This document shows, piece by piece, positions 3,001 through 61,336 of a DNA stretch of 64,000 nt. Numbering within the stretch: position 1 is the first letter of the stretch; every line of letters starts with the position of its first letter. Source of the DNA: a virus; IMG/VR virus record IMGVR_UViG_3300048837_000485, positions 2,511 to 66,510 of that record; one strand, given 5' to 3'. Both the position numbers and the translations under genes were made by a program. Below the pieces are notes generated by a model, which was not told where the DNA came from, did not search any database, and was given only the letters and a program-made list of their open reading frames with translations.

Positions 3001-5898
3001 TTGATTGAACAGGTATTTAGTACACCAACCGTATTACAACCTGGACAGGATTTACCAACTGAATTAAATAAATTTATTGATGTATTATCTGGATCTAAGG
3101 GATTACAAGATAGTCCCGTATTAGAAGAAATAAAGAGACAGATAACAAACCCTAAAAATGCAGAAATTTTTGGTAATAAGGATCAATTACAAAAAACTCT
3201 AGATGAGAAAGGTATATCTGGTGTATTTGAATTATTAACTACTGAATATGCTCCTGGTATTAAAAGCCTTATCGATAAAACCAATGCCTACAATGCAGAA
3301 TTAAGTAGACAAGCTACAGAATTAGAAGGTGTATTTGGTCAACTTAACCAAACAATAGCCCAAAGAAGCATAGCTGGTCAAGCTGCCCGTCAAGTTGGAA
3401 TAACACAAAGACAATTTAACGGAGTTACTCTTGCTCCTTCTGGATTAGATAATCGTAGAGTAGTGGGTGAAGTAGCAGCATCAACCGGTGTTTCTGGTGC
3501 ATCTGGTCTTGTTAAATTATTACAACAGTCTGATGCTTTAGCAGAAACTCAATCTAGATATAGAGTCGTTTCTGAAAATGCAGTAGCTGGACTTAGAAAA
3601 CTAGCAGATGCGGGTAGTAGAACAGCAGATAGTATTGATAGACTCAATGCTCTAGAAAGTAGCCGTGGATCACAACGTGGATTAGTAGAAAAGTCATTAT
3701 TTGCATCTCCAAAAGAACGTGCGGAACTCAATGCTAGACAAACTGCCGCTAGAACCTTCGTGGCTCGTGGTGGTAGTGATATTTCTGGTTTTGGAATTAA
3801 GCAACAGCAAGAAATAATTACAGCACTTAGGGAATCGGGTTCTGAATTATTAAAGGGTGGAAAAGGAAAGACTGCCGATCAGATTGCTAATGATCTGTTG
3901 GATAAGCTTGGTGGATTAGATAAGGATCCAGTTGCTAAAGAAATAGATGGACTTCAAAAAGAAGTTATTAGAGTACAGATAGAAGCTGCTAATATACAGA
4001 AGGTTTTGGCAGATAGACAGCAGGGAATATATGAAGATCATGTAAGACAATTAAGTGATGAGAATAACAGATTCTTGTCTGAGTTGGGAAGGGTTATTAC
4101 TACTGGATCACCATCGATTCCTAAGCCTACTCCTGTAGTGTCTCCTAATACTGGATCACCATCGATTCCTAAGCCTGCTCCTGTAGTGTCTCCTAATACT
4201 GGTGGATTCTTTTCTGTTGGTAATCAGTCATTATCTCGGAAACCGCCTGTGGAACCAAGTTTTTCTGATCCTAAAGTACAAGCAGAGTTTAATAGAGTAG
4301 ATCGACAATTCGTTACGAATAATCCTGTTCCAGCTTCCAATGTTAATAGACTAGGTGAGTTTAGAGAAAAATTAGATAGAGAGACCGCCGCAGCTAGGAA
4401 TACTAAACCTAATAAAGGATTCGTAACCGGTACTGTTGATGCTGTATTTGGTGAAAAACGTGTAGATCGTTTTAGTAATTTTGTTGATAGAAATGCATCT
4501 CCAATTTTGAGAGGTATTGATCCTATTCCAAAAATCCAGGCTGCTACCAAAGGGACCGTATTTGAAACAATACCAGAAAAAGAATTATCTCCAGACTTAA
4601 AGCTTAAAATTGCAGCTGAACAAAAATTGGGATTACCCGATTTTAAAACCAGGGAACTCAGAAGTCCGCCTACTGATAGGGTCGAAAGACTTTTAGATTC
4701 AAGAGGTGGCCTGTTCAATGTTGGATCTGGCGATGTTAAAAAACCACTAACTTTATATCAAGAAATGGATAAAATTTTAGAACAAAGAAAACGTAATGTT
4801 GGATCTGGCGATGTTAAAAAACCACTAACTTTAGATCAAGAAATGGATAAAATTTTAGAACAAAGAAAACGTGATGAAAATAAAAGAGAACTTGATAATA
4901 TCTTAGATCCTAAGAAAAATCCATTAGGGTCCTCTGGACACGTTGGACCACTTAATATACCAAAAGATAATGACATAACCACTTTAACTAATCAATCTAT
5001 TTTGGATGATAAAAATCTAACGACACTTGAAAAAGCGAGAGCGATACAAGATGTTTTTGCCGCACAGAGTAGAGAAAGAGCAATACAAAAACCTAATCTT
5101 GGGCCTGATGGTAATCATAAGTTTGTGACAAACAACGTTATTCCAGCTCCTAATGTTAATAGGCTTGGTGAGTTTAGAGAAAAATTAGATAGAGATACGG
5201 CAGCCGCAAGAGCCAGTGTTAAACCTAATAAAGGATTAGTAACGGGTGCTGCCGATGCCGTATTTGGTGAAAAGAATGTAGATCGTTTTAGTAATTTTGT
5301 TGATAGAAAAGTGTCTCCTATATTAAGAGGTATTGATCCTATTCCAAAAATCCAGGCTGCTACCAAGGGGACCGTATTTGAAACAATACCAGAAAAAGAA
5401 TTATCTCCAGATTTAAAGCTTAAAATTGCAGCTGAACAAAAATTAGGATTACCCGATTTTAAAACCAGAGAACTAAGAAGTCCTCCTACTGATAGAGTTG
5501 AAAGAGCTTTTGACAGACAAAATTCTGGTGGTGGATTTTTTAACGTTGCTTCTGAACCAGTATCTTTAAGAAATAAATTCAAACCACAAAACGATGTTAC
5601 TAAATTACCAGATATTAAACCGTCTGAATCTAATAATATAGATATGTCAGCTTTTGAAAGATTTAATACTTTATTTGGTTCTCATGTTGAAAAACTTGCA
5701 GCTGCAATTAGCACAATGCCAGCAACTATAGAAATGAACGTAACACAAACCGTCAACGTGATTCATAATGGTGCACAAATTTTTGCTGAACTAAGTCCAG
5801 CCATGCAGAAAATGGCAACCCTAGCTGTAGAAAATGGTATCAATAAGTTTATTAAAGAAAGCTTGCCCGATGCTAAACAATTTAAGGCGGTGGGATAA
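1..5898 (+). CDS. Tail tape-measure protein (5'-truncated; frame open from base 1)
   Basis: >1900 aa, Ala/Gly/Leu-rich helical sequence with a GYADGG..GEYIVKASSV..G..LDYIN..PGFNKGG motif and a Gly/Ala hydrophobic segment typical of TMPs; no in-frame stop between 1 and 112. Confidence 0.8.
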   Translation, partial: TGQDSLARQFDKTRAAFEELITTLTQDEGLRSLLGTVLEMTKSFAEFANSIAPVLPLLAGIGAIRAFPRIATFVGASINRIKGYADGGQPPSKGIIPAGSSGKIPGYSPIDNRLAFVGDGEYIVKASSVQRVGKNRLDYINQTGKVPGFNKGGMRSFDDGGLSGSSGLSPEQAKIQTAIDVLVAKLNTLSEKIQQGANRLEDLGPFIELNKEANKIKDELSLLRKKLASTKESTITPEKQAELRAANIRPKPNLVSLGVSENLRRDRESILPQSGLRPSEIINKARLESRRRDFEQQLAPGLAKQEARKNRILPTAQQVRESQVIITNLKSKIADSPYNPESTKPIRLTKTKQSELRGNTLIPGPRIRNADPATITAKTLSRNIGLYERTANIAKQMGVSYQQLLNSRRIPTPEYVRPISDIGRPSEKIKKQLQINRDKNQLYLSEHADPVSNTIDKNTYKTLDRNRRIGLAQTQGRAGDSSMLTSQLGSGNTGQVIGKLTSLTDTIPRQSSALANALREKSLQIYKEIRSSNAAEINTLEKKLAAATSQKTREILKAALLEKSSITSQDVLQQARLRAANELSKETLSTRVPNSGGPPRPPNKFISGLRDKASSTLGGIGGKISKNFQFSPGAVTHSAAIGGLIALNTQTGRDALSGTFGERRGSQVGGALTGALTGGLAGASFGPAGIAVGAFAGAVIGASSALKKFEEGIVQNKIDDTFSKLDKELENKDKPISSDVIKGIIESSKLQKEQLDSANAPGFFSRLIGTKQDESGVTLSLRERAIKKETFLGVPLATDFGANLLASRDKNSNLGLPIAKDINGRNIGTAQDLVANEARKNLELQTRNATAGSGSAAEKVLATLTTTTEITKEEFRGLTDAVAQARDGHLRNADAVEKEQAAIIDNRRKNKERLDFEAKATSTFVGSLNRSIDANYKYVRSLSEVGTRQIITRGTSAQDSIRNFSGLNLLGTKSFGEALNRAPVDNSQKQIFDQLNRSVSLIEQVFSTPTVLQPGQDLPTELNKFIDVLSGSKGLQDSPVLEEIKRQITNPKNAEIFGNKDQLQKTLDEKGISGVFELLTTEYAPGIKSLIDKTNAYNAELSRQATELEGVFGQLNQTIAQRSIAGQAARQVGITQRQFNGVTLAPSGLDNRRVVGEVAASTGVSGASGLVKLLQQSDALAETQSRYRVVSENAVAGLRKLADAGSRTADSIDRLNALESSRGSQRGLVEKSLFASPKERAELNARQTAARTFVARGGSDISGFGIKQQQEIITALRESGSELLKGGKGKTADQIANDLLDKLGGLDKDPVAKEIDGLQKEVIRVQIEAANIQKVLADRQQGIYEDHVRQLSDENNRFLSELGRVITTGSPSIPKPTPVVSPNTGSPSIPKPAPVVSPNTGGFFSVGNQSLSRKPPVEPSFSDPKVQAEFNRVDRQFVTNNPVPASNVNRLGEFREKLDRETAAARNTKPNKGFVTGTVDAVFGEKRVDRFSNFVDRNASPILRGIDPIPKIQAATKGTVFETIPEKELSPDLKLKIAAEQKLGLPDFKTRELRSPPTDRVERLLDSRGGLFNVGSGDVKKPLTLYQEMDKILEQRKRNVGSGDVKKPLTLDQEMDKILEQRKRDENKRELDNILDPKKNPLGSSGHVGPLNIPKDNDITTLTNQSILDDKNLTTLEKARAIQDVFAAQSRERAIQKPNLGPDGNHKFVTNNVIPAPNVNRLGEFREKLDRDTAAARASVKPNKGLVTGAADAVFGEKNVDRFSNFVDRKVSPILRGIDPIPKIQAATKGTVFETIPEKELSPDLKLKIAAEQKLGLPDFKTRELRSPPTDRVERAFDRQNSGGGFFNVASEPVSLRNKFKPQNDVTKLPDIKPSESNNIDMSAFERFNTLFGSHVEKLAAAISTMPATIEMNVTQTVNVIHNGAQIFAELSPAMQKMATLAVENGINKFIKESLPDAKQFKAVG
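4101..4202 (+). repeat. 48-bp tandem repeat x2 (TGSPSIPKP[T/A]PVVSPN) in TMP
   Basis: Near-identical adjacent copies read directly in DNA and protein. Confidence 0.95.
4309..5505 (+). repeat. ~380-bp direct repeat in TMP (4309-4689 and 5122-5505)
   Basis: FVTNN...PPTDRVER duplicated, differences mostly synonymous. Confidence 0.95.
4717..4872 (+). repeat. 78-bp tandem repeat x2 (NVGSGDVKKPLTL[Y/D]QEMDKILEQRKR) in TMP
   Basis: Near-identical adjacent copies. Confidence 0.95.
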
Positions 5899-5937
5899 TA
5901 TGATATTTAGCAATAAGCAAACTAAGGTAGTAATCTA

Positions 5938-8190
5938 ATGCCAGTACGTAGAGTATACTTAGATAAAACACAAGAGAACTTCTGTTCTAATAGTTTAGCT
6001 AATATAAACGATTTTCAATATAATCAAACATATAATAATTATGATAGATATAAGGACTCTTTATCACGTGGACTGTTTTTTGATGATTCTGGGACAAGAA
6101 TGTATATTGGAATGTATTCTAGTGGAATCATTGATCAATATGATCTATCTATACCTTGGGATATTAATTCTGCCACTTTGAATTATAGTTTGCCACTATC
6201 TGGTCATCATAATGGACACATTTGTAATATTTTGTCTTTTATTATTGTTAATAATGGTTCTGATCTTTATTATGGAGATAATGTATCTGGTTTACTTGGG
6301 ATTAACTATATTGTAAAGGGGGTATTTACTTCTCCTTGGGATCTAAGCACATTTACTTATACTGGAGCATCTGCCACATCTTTTACAGAATTATATGGTT
6401 TTAGTCAAGAGTATCCTTATCAAAACTCGCTTACTAGCTTATTTGCATCTCCTTCTCAATCTACATATAGTGCTAATTATTTATTTTCACTAGATGGGGC
6501 CGGTCCATCTATTTTGAATGCTTATGGAACGTTTTCTCATAGATTAAATAGTAAGGTATATATATTAACTAATAAAGATGAATTTTTTGATAATGAGGTT
6601 ATTATATATCAATATTATAAAAATATTGTTAATAGTTATTCAGTATTACCAATATCGTCTGGATACTTTACTCCATCAATAAGTAATAGCGGAAATGTTG
6701 GCCATATGGAATCTATGTTTGTAGACCCGTATGGTGAAAATTTATATATACTTAGCACGAGTGGATTAGTTCATCAATATATATCTTCTGGTTTACATTG
6801 GTATGGTAGCTCAGATAGTGGAATTAATATTCAAAATTTGTTTTATTTACCAAAATATGATTCTAACAGTATTTCTGATTATATAGATGAAGGTACTACA
6901 ATTAATGATAAATCTAATTTTTTCATTAGTGTGGATTCTGGATTATCCACCTTTTCTTTAAAAACGGAAATACCGTTTGTTAAAAACGTATCTGATATTT
7001 ATTTTGACGTAGGTTATGAATCTATTGTTTCAGGAATGAAAATTAGTGATATATTAGTTACTATGTCTAATGTTAAATCTGCGTATACTCCAGTTAATTC
7101 CGGATATTATTTAAATAATTCTGGTATTAATAATATTAATCTGAATATATTTAATAACTCAGTATTTAATAGTATTGGCAATTCTTCTGGTTTAACAATA
7201 ATGTTTGATTTATTTTCACCAGCATCTGGAAATAAAATTACATCATTAAATTTATCTATACTTGGAGATTATTATCCGGCTACCGGTATTAATGATTTTC
7301 CATTGTATATTAATGCAGAACCATCTAGTGGATCTTTAGATTTATTTTTGGGAAATTATCATCTAGAATCAGATATTGATTTATTTATTCATGGATATAC
7401 AAATATAAGCGGAACTATTCCTTTATTTACAAAGGGTTCAATTGAACTAAATGATAATATTCCATTATATATAAGTGGTAATCCTGTTAATAATAATATT
7501 CCATTATATATTCCTGGTGCCTTTTCTGCTGAACATGTAGATCTTTATATATATGGACATGATACAGAAAAAAGCGGAGTATCGTTATTTACATATGGTC
7601 ATGATTTAGTTTCTGGAGATTTTCCATTATATATTCAAGGAGTTGTTACTCAGACTAATTCGTTAAATTTATATCTAGATGCCGGGGAACTTACGCCAGA
7701 TAGTAGTAATTTTCCATTATTTATGTGGGCAACTAATAATTCTGGATTATATTCCACTTTTCCATTGTCTATTGGTTCAGATACTAGTCCAGACCCAACC
7801 CATAATTTAAATCTATTCTTAGGAAATAATTCTACTGCTGATTTATATGGATCAATGCCACTTTATTTGTATAATGATAATAGTAGCATAAAAGATCTTG
7901 ACTTATTCATTGCTAATTACTATACTAATATAAGTGGATCTATTCCTTTATATATATTTACAGAAAATTATGGATCTGGACGTGCTGAATTACCATTATT
8001 TATTGCTAGAGATTCAGAGTCATTAGCTGGTGTAGTTCCGTTGTTTTTAAGCACAACAGAAACTATTAATGAAGATATTGATTTGTTTATTGAGGGTTCC
8101 AATAGTGGAATTAATGATTCGGTTAATTTATATATTTCTGGAATAGATCCAATAGATTTAACAATGAAATTATTTACAAAAGGTATTTAA
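5938..8190 (+). CDS. Putative virion structural protein (N-terminal beta-propeller-like part, C-terminal short PLYI/DLFI-xG repeats)
   Basis: Directly after TMP; GLFFDDSGTRMYI..IDQYDLSIPWDI propeller-like motif; repeated (I/F/M)PL(Y/F)I units; Ser-Gly rich. Confidence 0.6.
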   Translation: MPVRRVYLDKTQENFCSNSLANINDFQYNQTYNNYDRYKDSLSRGLFFDDSGTRMYIGMYSSGIIDQYDLSIPWDINSATLNYSLPLSGHHNGHICNILSFIIVNNGSDLYYGDNVSGLLGINYIVKGVFTSPWDLSTFTYTGASATSFTELYGFSQEYPYQNSLTSLFASPSQSTYSANYLFSLDGAGPSILNAYGTFSHRLNSKVYILTNKDEFFDNEVIIYQYYKNIVNSYSVLPISSGYFTPSISNSGNVGHMESMFVDPYGENLYILSTSGLVHQYISSGLHWYGSSDSGINIQNLFYLPKYDSNSISDYIDEGTTINDKSNFFISVDSGLSTFSLKTEIPFVKNVSDIYFDVGYESIVSGMKISDILVTMSNVKSAYTPVNSGYYLNNSGINNINLNIFNNSVFNSIGNSSGLTIMFDLFSPASGNKITSLNLSILGDYYPATGINDFPLYINAEPSSGSLDLFLGNYHLESDIDLFIHGYTNISGTIPLFTKGSIELNDNIPLYISGNPVNNNIPLYIPGAFSAEHVDLYIYGHDTEKSGVSLFTYGHDLVSGDFPLYIQGVVTQTNSLNLYLDAGELTPDSSNFPLFMWATNNSGLYSTFPLSIGSDTSPDPTHNLNLFLGNNSTADLYGSMPLYLYNDNSSIKDLDLFIANYYTNISGSIPLYIFTENYGSGRAELPLFIARDSESLAGVVPLFLSTTETINEDIDLFIEGSNSGINDSVNLYISGIDPIDLTMKLFTKGI

Positions 8191-8233
8191 ATGGGATATA
8201 AGGTAGTCGATGCAATAGAAAGGGGTATCGTTC

Positions 8234-9709
8234 ATGGCGTGGATCTACTATAATAGTTCCTTAATACGACCGGTTCCATCAGTAACCATTAGTCAAAACA
8301 AGATTAAAAATGGTGCAGGTGAAACCATTGGTAACACTTATTCTATAACTGTCAATATTATATTGATGAGTTTTAAAGGGTCACCGAGGTCCGATGGAAC
8401 CTTTTGGACAATAAGTAATGATCCGCCAGATGAAGATATTGATGTAGATGATAAGATAGCTGCAATATCTAGAAAACAAGAAGCAATTAGAGATTTATTT
8501 GCTACTGAGGGACAATTATTTGAGATTCAAAGCCGAGGAGGGGGACAGCCTATAAAATTTAACCCCAGAATTCTAAGCATTTCTTTTAACGAAGGACTAT
8601 GGGTAGAAACGTGTAGCTGTACCATTCAAATGGAAGCAGATAAATTATACCTAGGAGACGGAGACGAGTTCGATAACTACCTTAATAATAGTGAAGAATC
8701 TTGGCAGTTGGATACCGACGAAACTCCAGAAAATATAAATTCACCAAGAACGTATAGATTAAGCCACACTGTTTCGGCAACTGGACGTAGGCATTATGAT
8801 GACTCTGGAGCCTTAACAAAAGAAGCATGGCAAGCCGCAAGGGATGATGTTGTTTCTAAATTAGGTTTTGATTCCAGTATTTTACTATCGTCAGGAGTTA
8901 GTAATCTTCCATCTTATTATGGTGGGTTTAATCATGTAAGAAATGAAAATATAGATAAAAGTAATGGATCATATTCTGTTACTGAAACATGGTTAATTGC
9001 TAGTGGTACAGCACTTGAAGATTTTACTGTTAATACTAGTCGTGGAAACGATGGGTTAATTAATGTTACTGTAAATGGAAATATTACTGGTCTAGAACAA
9101 AGAGATGCTAACTTGGGCCTTAGCGTTAGTAAATGGGACAACGCACTTAGCAAGTTTAACACTATTCAACCATTAATCAAAAACAGGGCTGAGACTTATT
9201 CTTCTGCTTCACTTCATGCGACCCCTACATCATATTCGACTGCTAGAAATCCAGCGGCTGGTACTATTTCGTATGATTATGGATATAACTCTAGGTTTAG
9301 AAATTTAGTTACTGGAACTTTATCTGAAGTTATATCTGTACAAAATAACTTAGAAACTGACCTATTCGCTACGATTGGTATTATAGGAAGAACACTTGGT
9401 AATTTATTACAAGATTTAAATACACGTAGAGAATTACAGAGAACAGTAAATATTGAATTGGTTTTTGATAGTGATTATATTCCATCTGGTGCCAGTATAT
9501 CGGAAGTGATTAATAACTATAATCCAAGATTACACTCTCCACAATCAACAGAGATTGCTTCTATATTATCAGCTGCACATCCTGTAACTGCTGGATTGTT
9601 GAATAATAACGGAAATCCGGTAACAAAGAGTTATATTTCAGACCAATCAGAAAACTGGAATTTTAGTTCTCGTTCGTACTCCAGGAATATCACTTATGTT
9701 TATGAATAA
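8234..9709 (+). CDS. Putative tail/baseplate structural protein
   Basis: 491-aa beta-strand-rich ORF in the tail module. Confidence 0.55.
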   Translation: MAWIYYNSSLIRPVPSVTISQNKIKNGAGETIGNTYSITVNIILMSFKGSPRSDGTFWTISNDPPDEDIDVDDKIAAISRKQEAIRDLFATEGQLFEIQSRGGGQPIKFNPRILSISFNEGLWVETCSCTIQMEADKLYLGDGDEFDNYLNNSEESWQLDTDETPENINSPRTYRLSHTVSATGRRHYDDSGALTKEAWQAARDDVVSKLGFDSSILLSSGVSNLPSYYGGFNHVRNENIDKSNGSYSVTETWLIASGTALEDFTVNTSRGNDGLINVTVNGNITGLEQRDANLGLSVSKWDNALSKFNTIQPLIKNRAETYSSASLHATPTSYSTARNPAAGTISYDYGYNSRFRNLVTGTLSEVISVQNNLETDLFATIGIIGRTLGNLLQDLNTRRELQRTVNIELVFDSDYIPSGASISEVINNYNPRLHSPQSTEIASILSAAHPVTAGLLNNNGNPVTKSYISDQSENWNFSSRSYSRNITYVYE

Positions 9710-9724
9710 TTTAGGATTAAAATA

Positions 9725-12700
9725 ATGCCATTAGAGCAGCTCACATACCTAGGTGCATCAATAACAGCAGTCAATTCAAATATTGGATGGGGAACTTCTC
9801 CGTCTACAATACAGGTTGACGTAGTTGAAGATCCTGCTAATGGTGATAACTTTTTTAATCCTGGAGTTGGGGTTGTTACCTATTTTGAATATGGTGCTAT
9901 TCAAATGGGTGGTATTATAACTTCTATTCAAACCAATAATAACAATGGTGGTAATCCAACTTACTCCGTTACTATTGAAGATCCTAGATCTATTCTTGAA
10001 GGTGTTCAATTAATTATTAATGGGTATACTGGTTTTACATATGGTGTACCAAACCTATACAATATTTATGGCTATCTAGAAAGTCTTGGTTTCGGTCGTG
10101 CTGGCGTAAATAATTCTGGTATTCAATGGAAAAATATTCGAGATGGATTTTTGTTTTTACAAAATACTACACCTATTAAATTTGGAACTACTAATAATTT
10201 ATATTTAGATTTATCACAGCTACCAGTATTACCAGATTATTATCGCATTAGTGGTGATGTAATTACTTTGATGGATTTTATTGTAGAAATTTGTGACGCT
10301 TCTTCTCATGATTTCTTTTTCAATTTAGAACAAGTTAGTAATAATCATGTTATTAAATTATATACGATAAACAGATCAGCCCAGCCTACCCTTGGAAATA
10401 TTAGTGCGTTTATAGCATTACAAGATGAAGTAGTATCAAGTAATACTGGAATTGAATTAAGAAATGAAGTAAGCTCTAAATTTTTAATTGGTGGAAACAA
10501 AGCCCAAATATATTTTCAATGGCCAAATCTTGGTGATGCTAGTACTTATACTGATGATACTATCTGGCCATATTGGGGAGTTGAAAACAGTGGGGATGTT
10601 ATCATTGGTGAAAATGGGCCAATGTTTAACAATCATAAGTTTACTCTTGGTAGTAAAGGTGTAGATGTTATTGGAGTTGGTGATACATATGATACCGATA
10701 TTTTTGAAATGAGGGCGGCTATATCTAGCCAAGAATCTTGGGAGTTATTATTATCATCTTATAATGAAGATATAAATAGTCCCCATTATCATAAGGCTAC
10801 TAGAATAGGAATGATTCATGACGTTAAAGACTTAAGTTCTTTTTTAGCTGGAAAAACGATAGAGAAGATAGAAGGCTTAATACCTTTAGATTTTACACAT
10901 CTTACTGGTAAAGTTATGACATCGGCAACAGATTCTTCTGTAGAAAGTATCCACGAAGAAAATCAGGCCGCACTTTATTCCTACGTTAATAACTTTGCTA
11001 ATGAATACTATGGTAAGAAATACCAAGTCAGAATCCCGTTTGTTGCTGCAAAATTAGATGATGATACTGGAGAAATAGTTACTAGTTTGGAACCAACCGA
11101 TGGTGGATATTTAGATTCTATATATTGGAGCGGTGCCGTTGGTAATAATCTTTTGCCAAATAATCCTTACGAAGTATCTTTAGAAGATGGAAGAATTCAC
11201 GCTTATGCTAAATTTGATAAGTTTGTTGATTATCCGCATCCAGACTCAGGAAGGGTTACATTAGATCTTTCAGACTTAAGTGCTGACGATTATGTTGTAA
11301 GACTAGATACTAATTCTGTTTTTGTTAAATGCACAGTTCAGCCGCAATTACAGTTTTTAGATAAGCAACTTGCATATTCACCAAGAGCGGTTATTGAATT
11401 ACCGGGAAGAGTAACAAAAAAAGATAAAACAAAAGATACTGCTAGATTTGACGGAATGTTTACAAGTAGATTTGAAGAAGTATTAAAAGGCGAAAAGGGG
11501 TTTAGTGATGCTGATGCTACAGAAGTAACTAAAAAAGTTATGGCTAGATTTGGTGCGGAAGCACTAAAGGCCGGATTAGCAGGAATGGCAATTATGCCAG
11601 ATATGGTTGCTATACCATTAAAAAGTAATATAGATTTCTATGGCCCTTGGTATTCAATTGGAGTTAATGGTAAAACAGATTTTGAAAGAGATGAGTCATT
11701 AGTACCTTGGAATTACGGTGGATTTGATTTAATGAATCTCACCGCAAATGCTAGAGTTTCTTCTGCTTTAAGTCAGATGCAAGTTGGAGAAGGTGGATCA
11801 TTTACTATTCCAGGTGTTCCTATAATAAACATGGGGGCACAACTCGTTGCTGGTGGTCCTAATATTACAGATATAAGTGTTAATATATCAACAGGTGGTA
11901 TTACAACAACTTATAAGATGCAAACATGGACTCCTAGATTAGGAAAAATACCAAAGCAATTTTCAGAAAGATTACAAAAGCTTAAACTTAATAGTGCAAA
12001 AATGGATAAGAATTTTAAAGCTACTAAAAGTGCAGATTCTTATGCAACTAGAGAACATCATTTTAATCTAAAAAGAACAAAAAGAGAATTCTTTAAAGGT
12101 AGACCAAGAAGAAAATCTAATTCTAGCACTCATCAATATCTAACTGGTGAAGTAATTTTTGATGGTAGTGGCTTTACTAGAACTAACGTAGTAACTTCTC
12201 CTGTATATCAAATATCTTCTAGTTTAGGTAGTGGATATGAAGAAAAAGCAGTAGTTAGTTTAGATTCTATCTTTACTCCTTTTACTATGAATCCGGATTC
12301 AGTAAGCGGCCTTCCTCATATTGAATTATATGAAGGATCAGAGGTTATTAATGGTAGTAGTTTAAATCCATTTTATAATAATAATTTTGGGATGGTTACT
12401 AGGGATTATCCTGATAGTGATGTAGATTTGACTGATGGTAGTGGTGATTATAAAGGTATTGGATTAAGGGGTCCATTATGGGTTACTGGTCCAGGATATG
12501 ATACAAATGGAGAACCCGTTCCTGGTGATGGTAGTGGAAACTTTATCGAAGACTATCAAAGAAAGATTGATCTACATAAAACTGGGCCAGTCTATTTACC
12601 CTGGGATGATGATAGAAAAATGTGGATCGGTGGCGGTTCTAGTATCCAATTAGGTATTATGAATCAAAATCTTTTATATAGAAATTCTGGACTAATGAGT

Positions 12701-12868: not shown

Positions 12869-12935
12869 ACCGCAGACAGATAATGGAATTTTTATATGTG
12901 TGTTTTATACAGAATGAGGAAATAAGTAGAAGAAT

Positions 12936-36648: not shown

Positions 36649-36964
36649 TTTTTGGTTCCATTACTATAAATCTTGATAATGAAGTTCTAAAACTAGATTC
36701 TTCATCTGGCTGAAATTCAAATCCAATATATCCTTGAAAATTATTATCACACCCAATTAATCCATTTAATATACCAAGTAAACCAACGGTATATCCGTCA
36801 TTTTGTCTCATAACTTGAACAGTTGGATGGTCTGACAACTTTTCATTACATGGAACCCTGTTTGCTATTAAACATGCTATAGCGTTTTTATCATATTCTA
36901 ATAATTCATTCATAAAATTAACAATATATTCTGCAAATTCTTTTTCTGTTATATTAAGTTTCAT
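36638..36964 (-). CDS. Hypothetical (inserted passenger) protein
   Basis: RVPCNEKLSDHPTVQV..VGLLGILNG; shares first 6 aa with the downstream gene. Confidence 0.65.
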   Translation of the reverse strand: MKLNITEKEFAEYIVNFMNELLEYDKNAIACLIANRVPCNEKLSDHPTVQVMRQNDGYTVGLLGILNGLIGCDNNFQGYIGFEFQPDEESSFRTSLSRFIVMEPKNET

Positions 36965-36973
36965 TATCTTATC

Positions 36974-37972
36974 CTAGTGTGAAAGTACATAATTAATCAC
37001 GCAGTGCCATTGTTTTACCCATCTATTTATATTACACCGCTCTATAATTGTTTTTCGAGCATTAGCACTTAGTTTTTCAGCTAAATCATTATCATTCATA
37101 ATCAATCTTATGGCTTCTAATATACCCTTTTCATCATTAGCTAATAATCCATTTTCCCCGTCTTTAATATAACTCGGTATTGCACAAGTAGCTACAGAAA
37201 CCGGAATACATCCACATGACATTGCCTCAAGCATTGATGTTGGAATTGGACTAAGTGGTGCAGTATTTAAAAAGATCTTAGCGGCCCTATATTCTTCAAT
37301 AAGCTCATTAACTGATTCTGCTGATTTGGATAACCCAGGAGTATCGCCTACGAATCTTGTAGGAATCTTACTAGCAATTTTTTGACATAGTTTCCAATTT
37401 AAAACATAATCACGACCAATTAAATCATTAGCAACTACTAAACATTTATTTTCTCGTTTTGTTGATCCCGGAGTAAAAAGATTAGAGTCAACAGTATGTT
37501 CAATCACAAATACATCATCACCAACAAATCCCCAATTTTCTTTACTCCATTCTGAAATAAATACATTGGCAGTACCACGCATATTTCTTAATTGACTCAC
37601 TTGTTGCTCATTCCACATTGGTGGTGGCATAACGCAAGTATGCTCAACAGAAATCATTGGCAATTGGAATTGCTCAGCTAGATGTGCTAGTGTTTGGAAT
37701 TGCCCAAATTTAGACTGAGATAATACAAAATCAAAATCTAACCACAAAGGAAACTCAGGTTGTCCTACACGATTATACAGTAAATGATAATTAGTAGGAA
37801 TTGGTGCGAATTTAGTATTCCACTGTTTATGATGTTTATTTTGAGAGATAGCCCAAAAGTCAACTCCGTTTAAATGTTGAAAATGACTTTCTGTCCTCTC
37901 ATGTGTGCAAACACTTAATCCATGCAAATGAGACCTGTCTAATGACTTCATTATTGATCTAGTTTGTGACAA
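36974..37972 (-). CDS. Glycosyltransferase family 4
   Basis: FLNT..SPIPTSMLEAMSCGC, IKDGENGLL. Confidence 0.9.
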   Translation of the reverse strand: MSQTRSIMKSLDRSHLHGLSVCTHERTESHFQHLNGVDFWAISQNKHHKQWNTKFAPIPTNYHLLYNRVGQPEFPLWLDFDFVLSQSKFGQFQTLAHLAEQFQLPMISVEHTCVMPPPMWNEQQVSQLRNMRGTANVFISEWSKENWGFVGDDVFVIEHTVDSNLFTPGSTKRENKCLVVANDLIGRDYVLNWKLCQKIASKIPTRFVGDTPGLSKSAESVNELIEEYRAAKIFLNTAPLSPIPTSMLEAMSCGCIPVSVATCAIPSYIKDGENGLLANDEKGILEAIRLIMNDNDLAEKLSANARKTIIERCNINRWVKQWHCVINYVLSH

Positions 37973-50968: not shown

Positions 50969-50984
50969 AATAATCTCCTATTAG

Positions 50985-50992: not shown

Positions 50993-51013
50993 GAAAATCC
51001 GACTTTTTATTCA

Positions 51014-52138: not shown

Positions 52139-52165
52139 AATTTTTTATTATTCTTTTCTAGAACA

Positions 52166-52993: not shown

Positions 52994-53062
52994 TGTTTTC
53001 CTTTTTAATTACAAATACCAAAAAGACGTTTTACCTCTTCCTGGTTCATTTCTGTTAGTACT

Positions 53063-54399: not shown

Positions 54400-54417
54400 T
54401 GGATCTCACAAGCTTGA

Positions 54418-54702
54418 TTATTCCAATAATTCTTTTTTCTTGTCTTCTATTAGTCTTTTGTGAAAAGTATCTTCTCCATCATCACCACTAACTAACCAAT
54501 CTATTCTTTGAGCATAGATAGATGCTAGTTTAAGATACTCGACCGCTTTTTTAAATTCTTCTATAGTTTCATCTGAATATAAATATCCGGTACAACCATA
54601 TTCATCTTCGGAAACATCTCCATTATTTCTAATAATATGTTCTATTTCGTCATAAATATAATTTATATCATATTGCTTGTAATCAAAATGACCACCACTC
54701 AT
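54418..54702 (-). CDS. Conserved phage hypothetical protein
   Basis: MSGGHFDY...IDWLVSGDDGED pattern. Confidence 0.7.
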   Translation of the reverse strand: MSGGHFDYKQYDINYIYDEIEHIIRNNGDVSEDEYGCTGYLYSDETIEEFKKAVEYLKLASIYAQRIDWLVSGDDGEDTFHKRLIEDKKKELLE

Positions 54703-54717
54703 ATTATTCCCAATCTA

Positions 54718-57180
54718 TTAAAAATCAACATCCTTTACTTCTGTTTCAAAACCATTCTCTTTAGATCTTCTGTTATTCATCACATCAAACCTAGTATTAA
54801 TTTCTCTCATTCTAAACATGTCCCTATCGGCCTGAACATTAATATAATTACTATCTTCTAACCCTGGTCCGAATCTACACTCTATAGGCTTAAACTTAAT
54901 GTTTCCATTCTCTTTGCCGTCCTCCATAATTTCTTCTTCGCTCTTTTTCTTAAATAGAATAGCAGACTGACATAACCACAAAAGACGATCAGACTGAGAA
55001 ATAACATCTGACGATTCTTTATTTATACCATCTCTATTAGACTGAGTAAAAGCTAAACACGGAAAATCATATTCTTTACAGAAGTCAACTAATTTACCAA
55101 TTTGAAAGCCAATAGCTTGATATTCTTGTAAATCATTTAACTCGTTAGTATCCATGATTTTAAAATAATCATATATTACTAAACAATTTTTTACCCGTCC
55201 GTTTTCATAACCAACTTTTTGTAAAATCCATCTACGAATAATAGATAGGATTTCTTCAAACGGCTTACCTGCCACAACCTTATGCTCAAACGGTAACTGC
55301 TTAATTCTTTCAATAGTTTTAGATCTTACTAACTTATTTTTTAAGAATGACCCATCTTCTATCTGTCTAATTGGTATTTCATTCATATTAGCTATGATAC
55401 GAGGGAATTGTTCTTCCAGAGTCATTTCAGTATCTAAGTATAGAATAGGAATATCTTGAGTTGATAAACTTAGTCCAGTACATATACCGATTGTTGATTT
55501 GCCACAATTATGAGTAACTATACAATTATCTGTTAAAAATAATCCATCCTCGGCATCGACTTCAATACATTTTGTTGGTAACTTACCAACCGGCTCTATT
55601 TTAACAATTGTTCTAGTAACCTGTTGAGTCCTGTTTACATATCTATTTCTTTTTCTTGATAGATAGAATGGATTATAATCATTAAATCTAATTTCTAAAC
55701 AATAAGACCAAAATATCTTTTTATTACAAGTAGTAGTTTGATATGTTATACTACCTATACCACCAAGTGATTCTATTAAGAATTTAACATCATAAGCTAG
55801 TTGTTTTGATACCGTAACATACCTCATTCTACAAGATTTTTTACTGTTATAAAATACTGTTCCATCTGTATCCATTAATCCAGCTAATAAATCTTTACGA
55901 TTTTGTATAGAATTATATAAATAATGCTTAGGAATAAATTTATTATAACAATTAGACTTGTCCATATTTAATAATCTTAATTTAGACAAGTATCCATTAA
56001 TTCTATAAGCTATTGCTTTACTATTTGGGTCATCATAGTCTATTTTTACTATATTAGAACCAATTCTGGATTTTATAATATCTATAATTTCTGGATCTGC
56101 ACTATGTATTTTTACAGTATGCGATACACTACCGTCTCCCAACCATGCACCAAAAGTATACGGGTCTATTTCTAGTTCTTGATGGTTAAAATCAGTAACA
56201 CCGGTTTTGATATAAAACTTATATTGTATTCTTCCAGAACCTTTTGTTTGATAAAAAAGTTTTTGATTAATTAAATCTAATGTAGATAATGTTGATTCTT
56301 TATTATTATAAAATCTATTAATAGTCCATAAGTGATCTTCTGAACAAATTATACTATCACCATCTCTAAAAGATACCTTGTAGCAATTTAACTTTTCAGT
56401 TTTAAGTACACGCTTTACTTTTGTAGTTCCGTTTTTTGGATGACAAATCACATCACCTTTTTTAATATCACATATATTTTTAGGTCCAGATGGAGTTATA
56501 ACATTATGATCAATATGAAGGCATTTTGGTCTTGCAATAAATAATGAAACCCCACCCCTCCGAATTCCTCCACCCATTACTTCATTTAGTATTGGAAACG
56601 GCAAAGGTATACCAATTGAGTTTCCTTCGTTTGATTCTAAAAAATCCAAATACGCTTCAATGTTATCACCAAGGTTTTTTGGAGAATCTTCTCTACCCTG
56701 ATGTAATTTACTAACCAAATCAAATATTGGTTTTTCGCTAATACCAACGATAGCATCGATACTTTCACTACCAGTGATATTAGAAAGATCTTTTATTGCT
56801 TCATAATGTTTTAATCTAGCTTCTCTTGCTATTTCCAATTTAGCTAATTTCTTAGCGTGTTCTCTAGCATTAAGCTTGGATGCTGGTAAAGAATATAATG
56901 CTCTAAGATAATCTAGATCTTCCTTTTCTTTACATACTAAAAAACCGAGGTTCATTTCCTCGGCTTGTGAGATTAAAGTTGGTATATCTATCTCTTGTTT
57001 CTTTTTTACTAACTCGTCAATACATTTAAAGATTGCTTGATTGTTTTCATTAGTAAACGCCGAACAAGAAATTATATCTGCAATATCATAAAAAGATTCC
57101 GAACCGTTTTGAGCAAGAATACTTAAGACAGCTCGTTCAGTACCATTATCTGATAGAACGTTTTCTTTTTGTTGTGACAT
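54718..57180 (-). CDS. dnaB: Replicative DnaB-like helicase containing an intein
   Basis: TERAVL, ARPK|..|CGKS Walker A, LDTEM, IYDY, QSNR. Confidence 0.92.
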   Translation of the reverse strand: MSQQKENVLSDNGTERAVLSILAQNGSESFYDIADIISCSAFTNENNQAIFKCIDELVKKKQEIDIPTLISQAEEMNLGFLVCKEKEDLDYLRALYSLPASKLNAREHAKKLAKLEIAREARLKHYEAIKDLSNITGSESIDAIVGISEKPIFDLVSKLHQGREDSPKNLGDNIEAYLDFLESNEGNSIGIPLPFPILNEVMGGGIRRGGVSLFIARPKCLHIDHNVITPSGPKNICDIKKGDVICHPKNGTTKVKRVLKTEKLNCYKVSFRDGDSIICSEDHLWTINRFYNNKESTLSTLDLINQKLFYQTKGSGRIQYKFYIKTGVTDFNHQELEIDPYTFGAWLGDGSVSHTVKIHSADPEIIDIIKSRIGSNIVKIDYDDPNSKAIAYRINGYLSKLRLLNMDKSNCYNKFIPKHYLYNSIQNRKDLLAGLMDTDGTVFYNSKKSCRMRYVTVSKQLAYDVKFLIESLGGIGSITYQTTTCNKKIFWSYCLEIRFNDYNPFYLSRKRNRYVNRTQQVTRTIVKIEPVGKLPTKCIEVDAEDGLFLTDNCIVTHNCGKSTIGICTGLSLSTQDIPILYLDTEMTLEEQFPRIIANMNEIPIRQIEDGSFLKNKLVRSKTIERIKQLPFEHKVVAGKPFEEILSIIRRWILQKVGYENGRVKNCLVIYDYFKIMDTNELNDLQEYQAIGFQIGKLVDFCKEYDFPCLAFTQSNRDGINKESSDVISQSDRLLWLCQSAILFKKKSEEEIMEDGKENGNIKFKPIECRFGPGLEDSNYINVQADRDMFRMREINTRFDVMNNRRSKENGFETEVKDVDF
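55507..56523 (-). mobile_element. Contiguous intein (339 aa) with LAGLIDADG endonuclease in the DnaB Walker A
   Basis: CLHIDHNV start, CSEDHLW, GAWLGDG and LLAGLMDTDG, ends FLTDNCIVTHN|C. Confidence 0.93.
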
Positions 57181-57191
57181 TTTTTTCCTTG

Positions 57192-57728
57192 TTACGATAC
57201 TCTAATACAATTATTACAACGCCATTCCTTACGGTATAGTTTTGGATTAATACTAAAAACCTTATGACACTTTAAACACTCAGCCTCAACCATTTTAAAT
57301 TCACCACGAGTTCTTTGTCCAACTGTAAACTTAACCTTTTTAGTAAACTCTTCGGTCTCATGTTTAAAATCACCAGTATCTATAAATTGTGTATTGATAT
57401 CACGTATTTGTTCTATTCTACACCTACGTCCTTCATCGCCATCTTGTTTTGGTTGTGGTTTAGATTTAGACATTGGTCTATGTATAAAAGATGATTGAAC
57501 ATCTTCTATTGGTTTTTCGACAATCTTCTCTAGTGGTTTTGAAGATGCAGTAATTTCTGATAATCCAAATTTTCCACACTCTGGACATTTTCTTTTTGGT
57601 TTTTCTGATACTAATTCATAAGAACAGTGATTACAATGATATGTTTTTCCTGCTTTAAATAAAGCTATAGCTTCTGGGTTTTGTGTTAACTTGGTTAAGA
57701 TAGCCATTTCTTCTTTTGTGAATACCAT
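57192..57728 (-). CDS. Zinc-ribbon protein
   Basis: CNHC..CPEC and CLKC..CNNC pairs. Confidence 0.7.
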   Translation of the reverse strand: MVFTKEEMAILTKLTQNPEAIALFKAGKTYHCNHCSYELVSEKPKRKCPECGKFGLSEITASSKPLEKIVEKPIEDVQSSFIHRPMSKSKPQPKQDGDEGRRCRIEQIRDINTQFIDTGDFKHETEEFTKKVKFTVGQRTRGEFKMVEAECLKCHKVFSINPKLYRKEWRCNNCIRVS

Positions 57729-57758
57729 ATATTCTTTCTTTCTTTAGTTATAAACATA

Positions 57759-58130
57759 TTAGTCTAACCTACTCATCTTATTTTTATTACCACTAAAGGG
57801 TAATCCAATTTTTTTCTTAGTAATTTCTATAGGTTTGGATTCTATTGCAATTTCTGCTAGGGATTCTATCCTATTAATTTCATCTTTAATATAAGGAATA
57901 ATTTGTTTACTCCTTAAGGAATAAACCCAGGAAATATCTTTGTGTTTTAAAGCTGATATTATAGATGAATAAGAATATACTTTTAGTAAAGAATGTGCTG
58001 CTACTACTTGTTCTTGATATCTTTTTTTCCAAAGTACAGAATTCCAGTAATTAGGTCCTAATATTTTTCCTTCTTTTTTTGCACGTCTTTGACAGACGAA
58101 ATCGGCAAGTAGTTTTGCTTCATCACACAT
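57759..58130 (-). CDS. Hypothetical protein
   Basis: Co-oriented ORF. Confidence 0.6.
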   Translation of the reverse strand: MCDEAKLLADFVCQRRAKKEGKILGPNYWNSVLWKKRYQEQVVAAHSLLKVYSYSSIISALKHKDISWVYSLRSKQIIPYIKDEINRIESLAEIAIESKPIEITKKKIGLPFSGNKNKMSRLD

Positions 58131-58611
58131 TCTTACCCTTTATCAAAAATTCTTTATCAGTTTCAAATTTTCTATTTCTATATGACTCCGGTATTAATTC
58201 CGGACATTTCCACTCGGTCGATTCTACACTACCATCATCTTTTAAATATCCAGTAATAAAATAGTGTGAATTACGATCAGATCCAAAATGACCCTTTAGT
58301 TTTCTTACTAAGAAATATCCAGATTCGTTTGGATTAAGGTGTTCATAATGAGATCTAAACTTTAGATACATTTTAGTTATATAAAAATTATTTTCATCAC
58401 AGTATTTTTTTAATCTAACCCACGATGGATCAATTAATCCTGGTCTTTTATCGTCATCCCAAATTTCTTCTCCATTATTAAGAAATACATGCCACACTGT
58501 GTTCCACATTTCATAATCAGATGTATAATCGTCTGGTTGTTTACAAATCACTATTGTTTTCCTGTTTATCAAAAAGTATTTCTCTTTCTGGTATACGACT
58601 CGGTTTTTCAT
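58123..58611 (-). CDS. Hypothetical protein
   Basis: Co-oriented ORF. Confidence 0.6.
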   Translation of the reverse strand: MKNRVVYQKEKYFLINRKTIVICKQPDDYTSDYEMWNTVWHVFLNNGEEIWDDDKRPGLIDPSWVRLKKYCDENNFYITKMYLKFRSHYEHLNPNESGYFLVRKLKGHFGSDRNSHYFITGYLKDDGSVESTEWKCPELIPESYRNRKFETDKEFLIKGKNV

Positions 58612-59845: not shown

Positions 59846-59880
59846 TTATTTTTACCTTTTCTTTTGTTCTATTTATATAA

Positions 59881-60108
59881 CTAGACCTTAACATTTCGTT
59901 CAGCTGTACTTAAATACCTACGTCTTCCATGTTTTAAAAAATTCATATTTACTACGTAAATTAGACCTTAACATTTCGTTCAGCTGTACTTAAATACCTA
60001 CGTCTTCCATGTTTTAAAAAATTCATATTTACTACGTAAATTAGACCTTCACGTTTCGTTCAGCTGTACTTAAATACCTACGTCTTCCATGTTTTAAAAA
60101 ATTCATAT
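59881..60108 (-). repeat. 80-bp tandem repeat (two extra copies of the 3' end of gene 60041-60328)
   Basis: Units start at 59881, 59961 and 60041, near-identical; each encodes MNFLKHGRRRYLSTAERNVKV*. Confidence 0.95.
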
Positions 60109-60328
60109 ATAAATCAAAACACTCTTGATTCACCTGAACTAGTTTCCAAGGGTGTCTCTTATGATATAAGGGTTCTGCATTTTGCACATCATATAATGTT
60201 TTACCATACGCCTTAACGTAGTATTTATTAATACCATCTTCTTTTTCTATATGCTTTGCAACACATTTTGATTCTTCGGTTTCAAAACCGTTTTTATTGT
60301 AGCATTTAGTTGATAATATTTTTAGCAT
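60041..60328 (-). CDS. Hypothetical protein
   Basis: Co-oriented ORF. Confidence 0.65.
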   Translation of the reverse strand: MLKILSTKCYNKNGFETEESKCVAKHIEKEDGINKYYVKAYGKTLYDVQNAEPLYHKRHPWKLVQVNQECFDLYMNFLKHGRRRYLSTAERNVKV

Positions 60329-60367: not shown

Positions 60368-60571
60368 TTACTTTCTTAAGTACGTAATTCTATCTCTAAG
60401 TTTACTTATTAATTCCTCTTGATTAGATCCTTCAATAACAATAACTTCTTTGCTCTTGATTCCATGTGGTTCTAAATTAAGCGGCCTACCAGAACAATAT
60501 TTTTCATCAAGTTCATGTACCTCTATAGTTAACATGATAACTGCCTTATGTGGTTTTTCACAGGATTTCAT
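60368..60571 (-). CDS. Hypothetical protein
   Basis: Co-oriented ORF. Confidence 0.6.
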   Translation of the reverse strand: MKSCEKPHKAVIMLTIEVHELDEKYCSGRPLNLEPHGIKSKEVIVIEGSNQEELISKLRDRITYLRK

Positions 60572-60896
60572 TTTTTTCTAGTTCCTTGATTCTATCTTTT
60601 AGTTTTTGTATCTCTAATTCATTACGATACGAACGGTCCTCTTTATCCAAAACTAAACCCGTTTTGACAGACCAAATTGACCACTTTTCTATATCAGACA
60701 TGCGGCTTATATATTCCTTTGCCCGATCTAATGTCATTAGACTTGCTTTATCGATATCAATATCTGTAAATATTGATGATAAATATAAATTATAATTTAC
60801 AAAATACCTAATTGGGCTTAAATTTTCTGTAGAATCTTTCCAAAGTAAAACATATTTATTTTTAACTTCTTTATGTGGTTTTTCACAGGATTTCAT
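60558..60896 (-). CDS. Hypothetical (inserted/chimeric) protein
   Basis: First 26 nt identical to the downstream gene. Confidence 0.55.
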   Translation of the reverse strand: MKSCEKPHKEVKNKYVLLWKDSTENLSPIRYFVNYNLYLSSIFTDIDIDKASLMTLDRAKEYISRMSDIEKWSIWSVKTGLVLDKEDRSYRNELEIQKLKDRIKELEKNEIL

Positions 60897-61336
60897 ACCG
60901 TCCCCTTTTCAATATAAGTTTCCATCTTAGTAGCCTGTTCTTCTTTAGTACCACTAAAAATCTTCTTCTCGTCTTTTTTATCCATTTCACCCCAAGGGGT
61001 TTCTACATCAATATGCTTTTCTATAAGTTGTTTAGCTTGGTCTGGGTCGATGATGCCACGTTTTATTTGGGGTTCAAACTTTTGAATACCAAAATTAATT
61101 TTATCTTTACGCTTACGGTCTTGAAACTCAACAGAACTTGGATTGCTGTTTCTTTCAGCAAGTACCCCCAAAGATCTACATTCCGTATATGTATACAGAT
61201 TAAGATTTTCATAATTTCTATTTAATTTCAGTTTATGACATTGTGGGCATTTTTTTAAAATTTTATATTTAGATGGAGATTGTTCTATTTCTAACTCAAA
61301 ACTACAATTTTCACATATATAATCATATATCGCCAT
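60893..61336 (-). CDS. FmdB-like zinc-ribbon protein
   Basis: MAIYDYICENC..E..Q....KKCPQC. Confidence 0.8.
   Translation of the reverse strand: MAIYDYICENCSFELEIEQSPSKYKILKKCPQCHKLKLNRNYENLNLYTYTECRSLGVLAERNSNPSSVEFQDRKRKDKINFGIQKFEPQIKRGIIDPDQAKQLIEKHIDVETPWGEMDKKDEKKIFSGTKEEQATKMETYIEKGTV

Follow-up and report, generated by a model that had tools for sequence, protein, structure and literature searches.

We analyzed a 64,000-nucleotide (nt) stretch of virus DNA (positions 2,511 to 66,510 of IMG/VR record IMGVR_UViG_3300048837_000485; hereafter the window), which represents 64,000 of the 66,510 bases of this single-contig virus record. The window has a G+C content of ∼31%; its plus strand carries nine structural genes (positions 1–18472) and its minus strand ∼70 tightly packed genes, and the source is a lytic, nuclease-rich wastewater phage. 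Phage genomes are mosaics whose joints are usually invisible, and it is debated whether these joints arise by random illegitimate joining followed by selection or by recombination at short similar sequences. The subject here is a set of gene junctions in the window that contain a second copy of the end of a neighboring gene (3′ echo) or of its start (5′ echo), in some cases with an unrelated passenger open reading frame (ORF) between the two copies. An original prediction, made from the DNA letters and their translations, had listed 14 such sites, whose names we keep, and had proposed an undescribed gene-capture mechanism. We found that the echo pattern is real and unusually dense.

Gene Ends Duplicated at Junctions

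The 3′ echoes lie directly upstream of the next gene and keep a native-looking stop/spacer/start arrangement, and on their upstream side the resemblance to the working gene end breaks off sharply. The working end and the echo are separated by a whole ORF (site 53005), 29–30 nt (24652 and 28365), 14 nt (the 80-nt array at 59881), or nothing (39284). The expectation that the old end is kept and the expression layout of the downstream gene preserved was thus borne out, with the native stop, ribosome-binding site, and start retained. All features of the echo junctions described below are on the minus strand.

At site 53005, the primase gene (53332–54399) has its working end at 53338–53384, and the echo of this end (53011–53057) lies beyond a passenger ORF of 89 amino acids (53063–53332), which belongs to no known family and starts on the last base of the primase stop with an overlapping ATG. 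The 53011/53338 match covers 47 nt (score 31 in the end test described below), and the echo ends in a stop followed by 11 nt with a ribosome-binding site and then by the ATG of the deoxynucleoside monophosphate (dNMP) kinase gene. The first 22 nt of the pair are identical, and the remaining 31 nt hold 11 of the 12 differences (p = 0.009 for random placement). This distribution suggests that an exchange, or a nuclease cut, took place at that very spot.

The echo at 24652–24712 repeats the last 20 codons of the gene at 24742–25515, a Vsr-like (DUF559) nuclease gene, 29 nt past its stop (61 nt at 84% identity; end-test score 40). It has its own TAA, followed by 11 nt with a ribosome-binding site and the ATG of the gene at 23810–24640. 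Compared by codons, 50 of 60 nt are identical, with 7.0 synonymous and 3.0 non-synonymous differences; two of the three amino acid changes in the echo fall on family-invariant residues (Arg-251 and Glu-254), which fits later decay. A 20-nt identical block within this pair is insignificant on its own (p = 0.14). Decay is visible at site 28365, where the echo of the end of gene 28442–29251 (28363–28411) contains an in-frame TAG and an indel; the 28363/28440 match extends over 50 nt at 86% identity (end-test score 33), and the TGA of the echo overlaps the ATG of the gene at 27910–28368.

Two sites, 39240 and 39284, belong to a tandem structure at 39214–39329, in which the whole stop/start junction between two glycosyltransferase genes (39298–40899 and 38162–39247) is present in two 58-nt copies. 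The units are identical at 46 of 58 nt, the 39226/39284 match being 46 nt at 89% identity, and the duplication makes a 21-codon mini-ORF. At site 59881, three tandem 80-nt units occupy 59879–60118; the first is the end of the gene at 60041–60328, and the remaining two stand free as 21-codon mini-ORFs, departing from the gene copy only at two synonymous positions. Each of these free units (59879–60038) encodes an identical 21-residue basic peptide with its own ATG. A further short echo is probable at 25508–25534, where the peptide MKEIYE followed by a stop resembles the end of gene 25540–25995 and overlaps the start of the gene at 24742–25515: the peptide KEIYE has a p of 0.005 per junction, and the 15 of 24 nt that match in register are reached by none of 78 other gene ends.

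According to the original prediction, many 3′ echoes are mini-ORFs that abut the next start. This description fits 39284, 53005, 59881, and 25508; it does not fit 24652, which has no start codon in frame, or 28365 with its TAG and indel.

Gene Starts Duplicated in Passenger ORFs

In the 5′ echoes, a passenger ORF opens with the first 6–11 codons of the following gene, continues into unrelated sequence, and runs in another frame across the start codon of that gene. Each match sets in at the start codon itself, since different genes lie upstream of the two copies.

The passenger at 36638–36964 (108 amino acids) opens, at 36947–36965, with the six codons that begin the next gene; the start of that gene (36205–36648) at 36631–36649 is identical to the start of the passenger upstream, and the pair has an in-register start score of 15. 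This passenger matches phrog_21281 only from its residue 11, as expected for a borrowed N terminus fused to a real gene. In the passenger at 37959–38165 (68 amino acids), codons 2–8 match the next gene, 36974–37972; the pair, 38142–38165 and 37949–37972, has a score of 14, which none of 2927 non-adjacent pairs reaches. The third pair is 60863–60896 and 60538–60571 (32 of 34 nt, 94% identity; score 26), in which the passenger at 60558–60896 (112 amino acids) has its first 11 codons in common with the next gene, 60368–60571.

Together with the ORF at 53063–53332, these passengers make up the four predicted cases in which a pair brackets an ORF, and all four were confirmed. None of the four matched a nuclease or transposase family in PHROGs or Pfam, even at expectation values (E) up to 5, a search that decayed remnants could escape.

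Excess of Repeats over Chance and over Control Phages

We compared the window with itself, using direct repeats less than 1 kb apart with E < 0.01 as the criterion. Among 12 such matches, 5 lie inside two large structural genes, and the other 7 represent six loci, all of which touch a gene terminus (24652/24742, 28363/28440, 39226/39284, 53029/53356, the 80-nt array at 59879–60118, and 60538/60863). The start-to-start match 36631/36947, identical over 19 of 19 nt, had an E of 0.026.

The predicted excess of terminus matches in flanking DNA was confirmed against null pairs. When the last 60 nt of each gene were compared with the 400 nt that follow it, a score of 18 or more was obtained for 5 of 77 gene ends versus 0.16 expected from 5280 non-neighbor pairs; for gene starts and the 400 nt that precede them, the corresponding numbers were 4 of 77 versus 0.09. 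One of the four start matches, at the start of 24742–25515 (score 19), is gapped and not at a start, and we left it uninterpreted. When codons 2–11 were compared in register, three adjacent gene pairs shared their beginnings with scores of 26, 15, and 14, and none of the 2927 non-adjacent pairs reached 14 (maximum 12). An additional 5′ candidate, 30577/30776 (in-register score 9), was rejected in view of its two different N termini. At the protein level, where gene-end peptides were sought within 150 nt, the four nearby strong 3′ echoes stood out.

Of the 14 sites originally listed, 9 were confirmed far above chance (24652, 28365, 39240, 39284, 53005, 59881, 36947, 38144, and 60871), 25508 was probable, and 4 were inseparable from chance. 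Among the latter, site 5900 had a local DNA score of 8 and matched at 13 of 24 nt in register, a value reached by 1 of 78 other ends; site 36172 matched at 11 of 24 nt, a level that 5 of 78 other ends also attain, and had a protein-level p of 0.15; site 60327 had a DNA score of 15.5, with a null fraction of 0.024 at 15 or more, and a protein-level p of 0.15; and site 57740 was outside the top scores of both the terminus-versus-flank and the protein-level tests.

As controls, four phage segments were analyzed in the same way, with ORFs called by a simple program of our own. Under these conditions the window gave 5 end and 4 start matches in 75 genes. The controls gave 0 and 1 in Geobacillus phage GBK1 (55 genes), 1 and 1 in the first 50 kb of Bacillus phage BCD7 (76 genes), 0 and 0 in the first 50 kb of Staphylococcus phage MVC_VPHSA2 (79 genes), and 0 and 0 in the first 50 kb of T4 (81 genes). 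The echo rate is therefore higher in the window than in unrelated phages, as had been anticipated, with 9 matches in 150 tests versus 3 in 582.

Allele-like Divergence between the Copies

Codon-by-codon counting over nine aligned echo pairs revealed 23 synonymous differences on 61.5 sites and 25 non-synonymous differences on 277.5 sites, a ratio of the non-synonymous to the synonymous proportion (pN/pS) of 0.24 (binomial p = 2.4 × 10⁻⁶). This bias indicated that the echoes are diverged alleles that were once real gene ends, in agreement with the original preference for alleles over fresh local slippage. It is driven by the 53005, 24652, and 59881 pairs; the 28365, 39240, and 38144 pairs, of which 28365 is visibly decayed, show no synonymous bias individually, and the claim that the copies differ mainly at synonymous positions thus applies to the former three and not to the latter. 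In the 53005 and 24652 pairs pS is ∼0.7 (0.69 for 53005), with pN of 0.13 and 0.06, respectively. Judged from these values, the copies in both pairs diverged while each was a working gene end.

Primases of relatives that are 97–99% identical end in GICS or GVCS, and the 53005 echo encodes GICN, one residue from GICS. Another relative primase (P0002, 206 residues) is 84% identical over its first 139 residues and then continues into an unrelated Cys-rich tail, a switch suggesting that an insertion has split the primase of that strain.

Junction States in Independent Contigs

Megablast searches of phage records, and searches of viral, metagenome, and genome contig collections, yielded no close DNA relative of the window, although these collections may lack very near records, and the primase matches in a tblastn search of phages were only 21–28% identical. 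Two metagenome loci from a 22-mer scan (L001 and L002) were discarded as unrelated genes merely sharing 22–30 nt. Sequencing runs were more informative: in at least 20 runs from 13 studies of wastewater, sludge, and aquatic samples, half or more of the words sampled from 48200–58199 were present. We compared the window with the contigs of four of these runs, from four studies (X1, X3, X4, and X13), over 36100–56099. Because contigs rather than reads were used, this comparison shows presence and not frequency, and it is informative where long contigs cover a junction.

Four echo structures were reproduced in independent contigs from three other studies. The 36631/36947 pair is present in X4 record 22 and the 37949/38142 pair in X4 record 22 and X13 record 9; the tandem junction 39214–39329 is spanned by X3 record 18, X13 record 10, and X4 record 23; and the echo, passenger, and primase end (53003–55641) are present in X3 record 21. 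This result indicated that the echoes are not an artifact of strain mixing during assembly, one of the outcomes that would have spoken against the original prediction.

The expected filled and empty states were also found in nature, with alternatives documented at two of the nine confirmed sites. At 53005, a contig of X1 joins 52992 to 53332, so that the passenger and the echo are gone and the primase stop overlaps the kinase start. X3 record 21 carries ∼478 extra letters exactly between the stop of the echo and the ribosome-binding site of the kinase gene, bounded by an 8-nt repeat, and in X13 record 15 a stretch of 411 letters that diverges from the window begins at 53338. At 36947, a minor X1 contig has 37 letters in place of 36652–37006 and has lost the passenger 36638–36964; here the upstream glycosyltransferase gets a different C-terminal allele, which is followed by a ribosome-binding site.

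Junctions with no echo vary as well. The gene at 46155–46421 is missing in X1 and X3, and the joint shares the 5-nt sequence AATGA; X3 has 532 letters in place of the 17 nt at 47958–47974. Gene-sized indels at such junctions (46161|46418 and 53003–53010) share only 5–8 nt and have no echo, a signature of illegitimate joins. A 39-nt skip at 36178|36218 in three runs, with unread letters between its sides, shows only that the junction varies. Several long-range joints had sides of 20–24 letters (42843 to 55301 is one of them); their probable source is paralogous endonuclease genes, and we set them aside.

Putative Recombination Genes and Other Genes of the Window

The gene at 23810–24640 (minus strand), next to the 24652 echo, had been described as annealase-like. 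Profile searches gave no sequence-family match for it. In a fold predicted from a 23-sequence alignment (mean predicted local distance difference test score 81), we found a Rad52/Sak-like core and a Redβ-like C-terminal domain: residues 69–206 matched RAD52 (Z = 6.5, 101–104 residues aligned, root mean square deviation 4.5), residues 210–268 matched the Redβ C-terminal domain (Z = 8.0, root mean square deviation 2.4, 59 residues aligned), and 80α Sak was matched over 151 aligned residues (Z = 6.2). These Z values are moderate, and the description holds for a putative Rad52/Redβ-like single-strand annealing protein.

Homologues of this gene and of the Vsr-like nuclease gene 24742–25515 occur on contigs of the same sizes (3421, 3095, 84971, and 115724), so the two genes are probably a conserved adjacent pair. 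Two relatives, on short contigs bearing P0026/P0055 and P0027/P0056, have annealase homologues 71% and 57% identical to that of the window. The pairing (23810–25515) is apparent in relatives down to ∼40–50% identity, and it may represent a recombination module of two genes in which the nuclease partner is unusual.

The gene at 51014–52138 (minus strand), originally called Cas4-like, encodes a PD-(D/E)XK nuclease domain according to PHROGs and Pfam. It is the most variable stretch of 36100–56099: contigs of X1 and X3 have in its place a mosaic allele of similar length whose sequence has diverged strongly, X3 record 21 has 980 unaligned letters for 51191–52174 of the window, and depth is low in all four runs. 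This nuclease domain was thus substantiated, as was the annealase fold; that either gene acts as an agent of echo formation, as was further proposed, may be so.

PHROGs and Pfam searches also named the primase, a DnaB-type helicase with an intein-like insert (54718–57180), a family-B DNA polymerase in at least three pieces (48219–49931, 43680–44546, and 41690–42763), a dNMP kinase, a DprA-like protein, a PhoH-like protein, and at least six homing-endonuclease-type genes or fragments. The helicase ORF has 820 residues, and its central insert (approximately residues 219–559), which matches PHROG families labeled terminase large subunit, is probably an intein or Hint-type insertion. The polymerase pieces (41690–49931) are separated by endonuclease genes (42736–43647 and 44518–45357) and ∼3 kb of small ORFs, and Rfam detected no intron in this region; X3 contains an endonuclease-free, in-frame polymerase junction (42767, 7 letters, 43700). 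The ORFs 49922–50323 and 50588–50968 look like decayed pieces of a paralogue of the endonuclease gene 61339–62421 (373 nt at 73% identity and two short blocks). Rfam and tRNA scans of the window found nothing, including no group I introns or guide RNAs at the junctions and no omega RNA.

A block of sugar epimerase, glycosyltransferase, and methyltransferase genes occupies 25989–40899 on the early/replication strand. It comprises three nucleotide-sugar epimerase-like genes, at least three glycosyltransferase genes, and methyltransferase-like genes, and may encode a pathway for sugar modification of DNA or of the surface. The echo junctions 36947, 38144, 39240, and 39284 are within this block, and we place 28365 just before it. 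On the plus strand, the giant open-ended structural ORF 1–5898 (more than 1965 residues) has internal repeats, namely a ∼365-nt unit that recurs at a distance of 813 nt (89% identity) and, in tandem, units of 78 and 48 nt.

Discussion

We consider it probable, at roughly 0.6, that the echoes are scars of out-of-register recombination between co-circulating related strains. Close strains of this phage occur together and differ in small genes and in alleles that have diverged strongly. In an exchange of a segment between such strains, one crossover would be homologous and lie in a shared flanking gene; with differing neighbors the other side would lack homology, and an illegitimate join, or one at very short homology, would therefore seal it within a few codons of a gene boundary. 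Products in which a gene is cut, or a downstream gene is parted from its ribosome-binding region, would be lost. The surviving products would keep both neighbors and their translation start regions, and joins that overshoot would leave a stub. An overshoot on the 3′ side would leave the old gene end of the recipient, still joined to the start region of the next gene, as a 3′ echo. On the 5′ side, the first 6–11 codons of the recipient's next gene would become fused in frame to the incoming ORF and be followed by the donor's own copy of that gene, giving adjacent genes with the same N terminus. Such short, diverged repeats would persist and decay because they are a poor recombination substrate, and slippage would later multiply some of them, the 80-nt array being an example. 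The echo-free indels with 5–8 nt of microhomology would represent the same process minus the overshoot. We infer this order of events, and with it a selection acting on translation start regions.

One homologous exchange, one out-of-register join, and selection could make every structure described here, so that a dedicated gene-capture system, as originally proposed, is not needed. Rad52-like recombinases are described as recombining short, diverged sequences (PMC3945230), and the putative annealase and the nucleases of this phage may have a role in making the breaks and the tolerant joins.

Several observations weigh against recombination between strains as the source of the echoes. Identity over 22 nt followed by synonymous saturation at 53005 is not predicted by a homologous crossover far upstream. 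All three 5′ fusions are in frame with long ORFs, which needs selection or some mechanism; such fusions would need selection for translation through the passenger. A parent genome in which the echo allele is a working end abutting the next gene was not recovered, the contig collections having given no DNA of relatives. The two echo-free controls, T4 and MVC_VPHSA2, are rich in homing endonucleases, and the control sample is small, with four segments and a crude ORF caller. Finally, the contig comparison covers 36100–56099, between the junctions at 24–28 kb and those at 59–61 kb.

The 22-nt block keeps two rival explanations alive. In one-ended homing of the mORF or WHO type, a site-specific nuclease would cut near the 3′ end of the recipient gene, the donor's recoded, resistant end and the passenger would be copied in by repair, and a non-homologous join on the far side would push the old gene end downstream. 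The order of recoded end, ORF, and old end at 53005 is the mORF layout as described (PMC3630166), and the 22-nt identity could reflect a cut ∼22 nt from a recoded binding site; a working end that is recoded relative to the displaced one, perhaps across a nuclease target, is seen at both 53005 and 24652. The endonuclease genes of this genome and the co-occurrence of an endonuclease-free polymerase allele in run X3 would also suit homing. We nonetheless regard it as unlikely, given that none of the four passengers has a nuclease family match, that the gene echoed at 24652 is from a conserved family apparently beside the annealase in relatives, and that the 5′ echoes and the tandem junction 39284 misfit the layout. 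Moreover, T4 and the Staphylococcus phage have such nucleases in abundance without echoes, and homing endonucleases alone therefore cannot account for the density. The other rival, a self-propagating cassette system, appears quite unlikely. Here gene termini would serve as short recombination cores, and a passenger would circle out with one core and insert into the same core of a naive genome with the help of the annealase, by analogy with PeSL mini-circles (PMC2839356) or with integron cassettes minus the integrase. The inserts do have perfect or nearly perfect cores at their flanks (53005, 22 nt; 36947, 19 nt; 60871, 32 of 34 nt), indels run from start codon to start codon with AATGA in common, an annealase is encoded according to its predicted fold, and the PeSL mini-circle provides a precedent. 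The first copy of any such structure would still require an illegitimate join, however, and double crossovers in kilobases of 97–99% identical flanks explain its spread more simply. In the self-comparison the cores are mutually unrelated and have no common motif; the empty echoes 24652 and 28365 have just 29–30 nt between their copies; and the empty variants of X1 (52992|53332, and 36651..37007 with 37 other letters) are not products of core-by-core excision. A more far-reaching version, to which we give only a small chance, is that gene termini serve as docking cores that are portable and need no integrase. An ORF lacking a promoter would carry along one copy of the first or last 20–60 nt of its neighbor, be inserted at a translationally coupled junction by annealase-driven recombination at short homology, borrow the resident start region, and supply a ribosome-binding site for the displaced gene. 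If true, such start-to-start cassettes would explain both the echo density and the in-frame fusions.

Another possibility is that slippage or unequal crossing-over within one genome duplicated a segment in tandem and that the spare copy then decayed neutrally. This could account for the two near-identical extra units of the 80-nt array and the two exact 58-nt units at 39214–39329, whose differences show no synonymous bias. As a general explanation it is very unlikely: it is at odds with the synonymous bias and saturated pS of the 53005 and 24652 pairs and with the unrelated ORFs between the copies in four cases, and only one echo (28365) has an indel despite divergence of 11–21%. Target-site duplication by a transposon or miniature inverted-repeat transposable element was rejected, as the synonymous bias argues against neutral decay, the spacers and passengers are not repeated in the window, and Rfam found nothing. 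That the whole pattern is a mixed-strain assembly artifact, or chance similarity in AT-rich DNA, is scarcely credible. The assembly is of the metagenome type, strains co-occur, and 4 of the 14 listed sites are at chance level, but four structures recur in contigs from three independent studies, and the excess stands out over both the null pairs and the control phages.

Recombination between strains remains our preferred reading, and a phage that keeps at least nine joints readable makes the origin of mosaic joints testable. Filled, empty, and differently filled versions of a junction exist among samples, and two junctions vary within one run (X1); junction haplotypes, possibly including both parents of each joint, can be reconstructed from public reads. 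The structures also suggest how small ORFs of unknown function can enter operons with tight coupling while the neighboring genes stay expressed.

Parts of this picture resemble systems already described. In fungal mitochondria, mobile endonuclease ORFs (mORFs) create gene hybrids whose C terminus is duplicated (Beaudet et al. 2013, PMC3630166, which also cites an Allomyces atp6 case). As in the window, their working end is foreign and mostly synonymously different, and the native end is displaced past the inserted ORF. The mORF insert is a LAGLIDADG or GIY-YIG endonuclease in the cases described, whereas our passengers have no nuclease signature and many echoes are passenger-less. The WHO elements of Torulaspora and Lachancea stack old gene ends by repeated 3′-end replacement (Coughlan et al. 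2020, PMC7282813), comparable to the 80-nt array and to the extra X3 insert at 53005; as reported, they have one target gene and encode their nuclease, in contrast to the many unrelated junctions seen here. In T4-type PeSL cassettes, small ORFs of unknown function are likewise gained and lost between sister phages via flanking short repeats (Arbiol et al. 2010, PMC2839356). That account has one conserved promoter-plus-terminator motif throughout the genome, whereas in the window different gene termini within overlapping stop/start operons are involved. A Rad52-like annealase and exchanges apparently at short identity within diverged sequence are features in common with De Paepe et al. 2014 (PMC3945230); the exchanges described there are in register, and ours would be out-of-register joins that create duplications. 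In work on homing-endonuclease genes at the borders of phage exchanges (Barth, Dunham and Seed 2023, PMC10448857), a lytic phage rich in nucleases likewise has essential genes that are split and alleles that are replaced around the nucleases; the summary of that work does not mention the duplicated gene termini that are a feature here.

A keyword literature search found no phage with many such echoes, and we make no claim of their absence from print on that basis. The closest parallel is mycobacteriophage Island3, in which genes 67 and 68 have 60 bp in common at their 3′ ends, a sequence present in one copy in the sister phage Brujita (Pope et al. 2011, PMC3029335). The authors presented it as the first such structure in mycobacteriophages and attributed it to recombination at ∼50 bp of similarity near gene boundaries. 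As in the window, a small passenger that is absent from a 99.8% identical sister is bracketed by ∼60 bp of gene-end sequence. In the published description, however, Island3 has one case per genome and its echo is the passenger's own C terminus, whereas we find at least nine in 64 kb; these mostly stand alone, are untranslated or mini-ORFs, and have a mirror-image 5′ version. Single structures of this kind are thus already in print, and it is their high density in this phage that is new.

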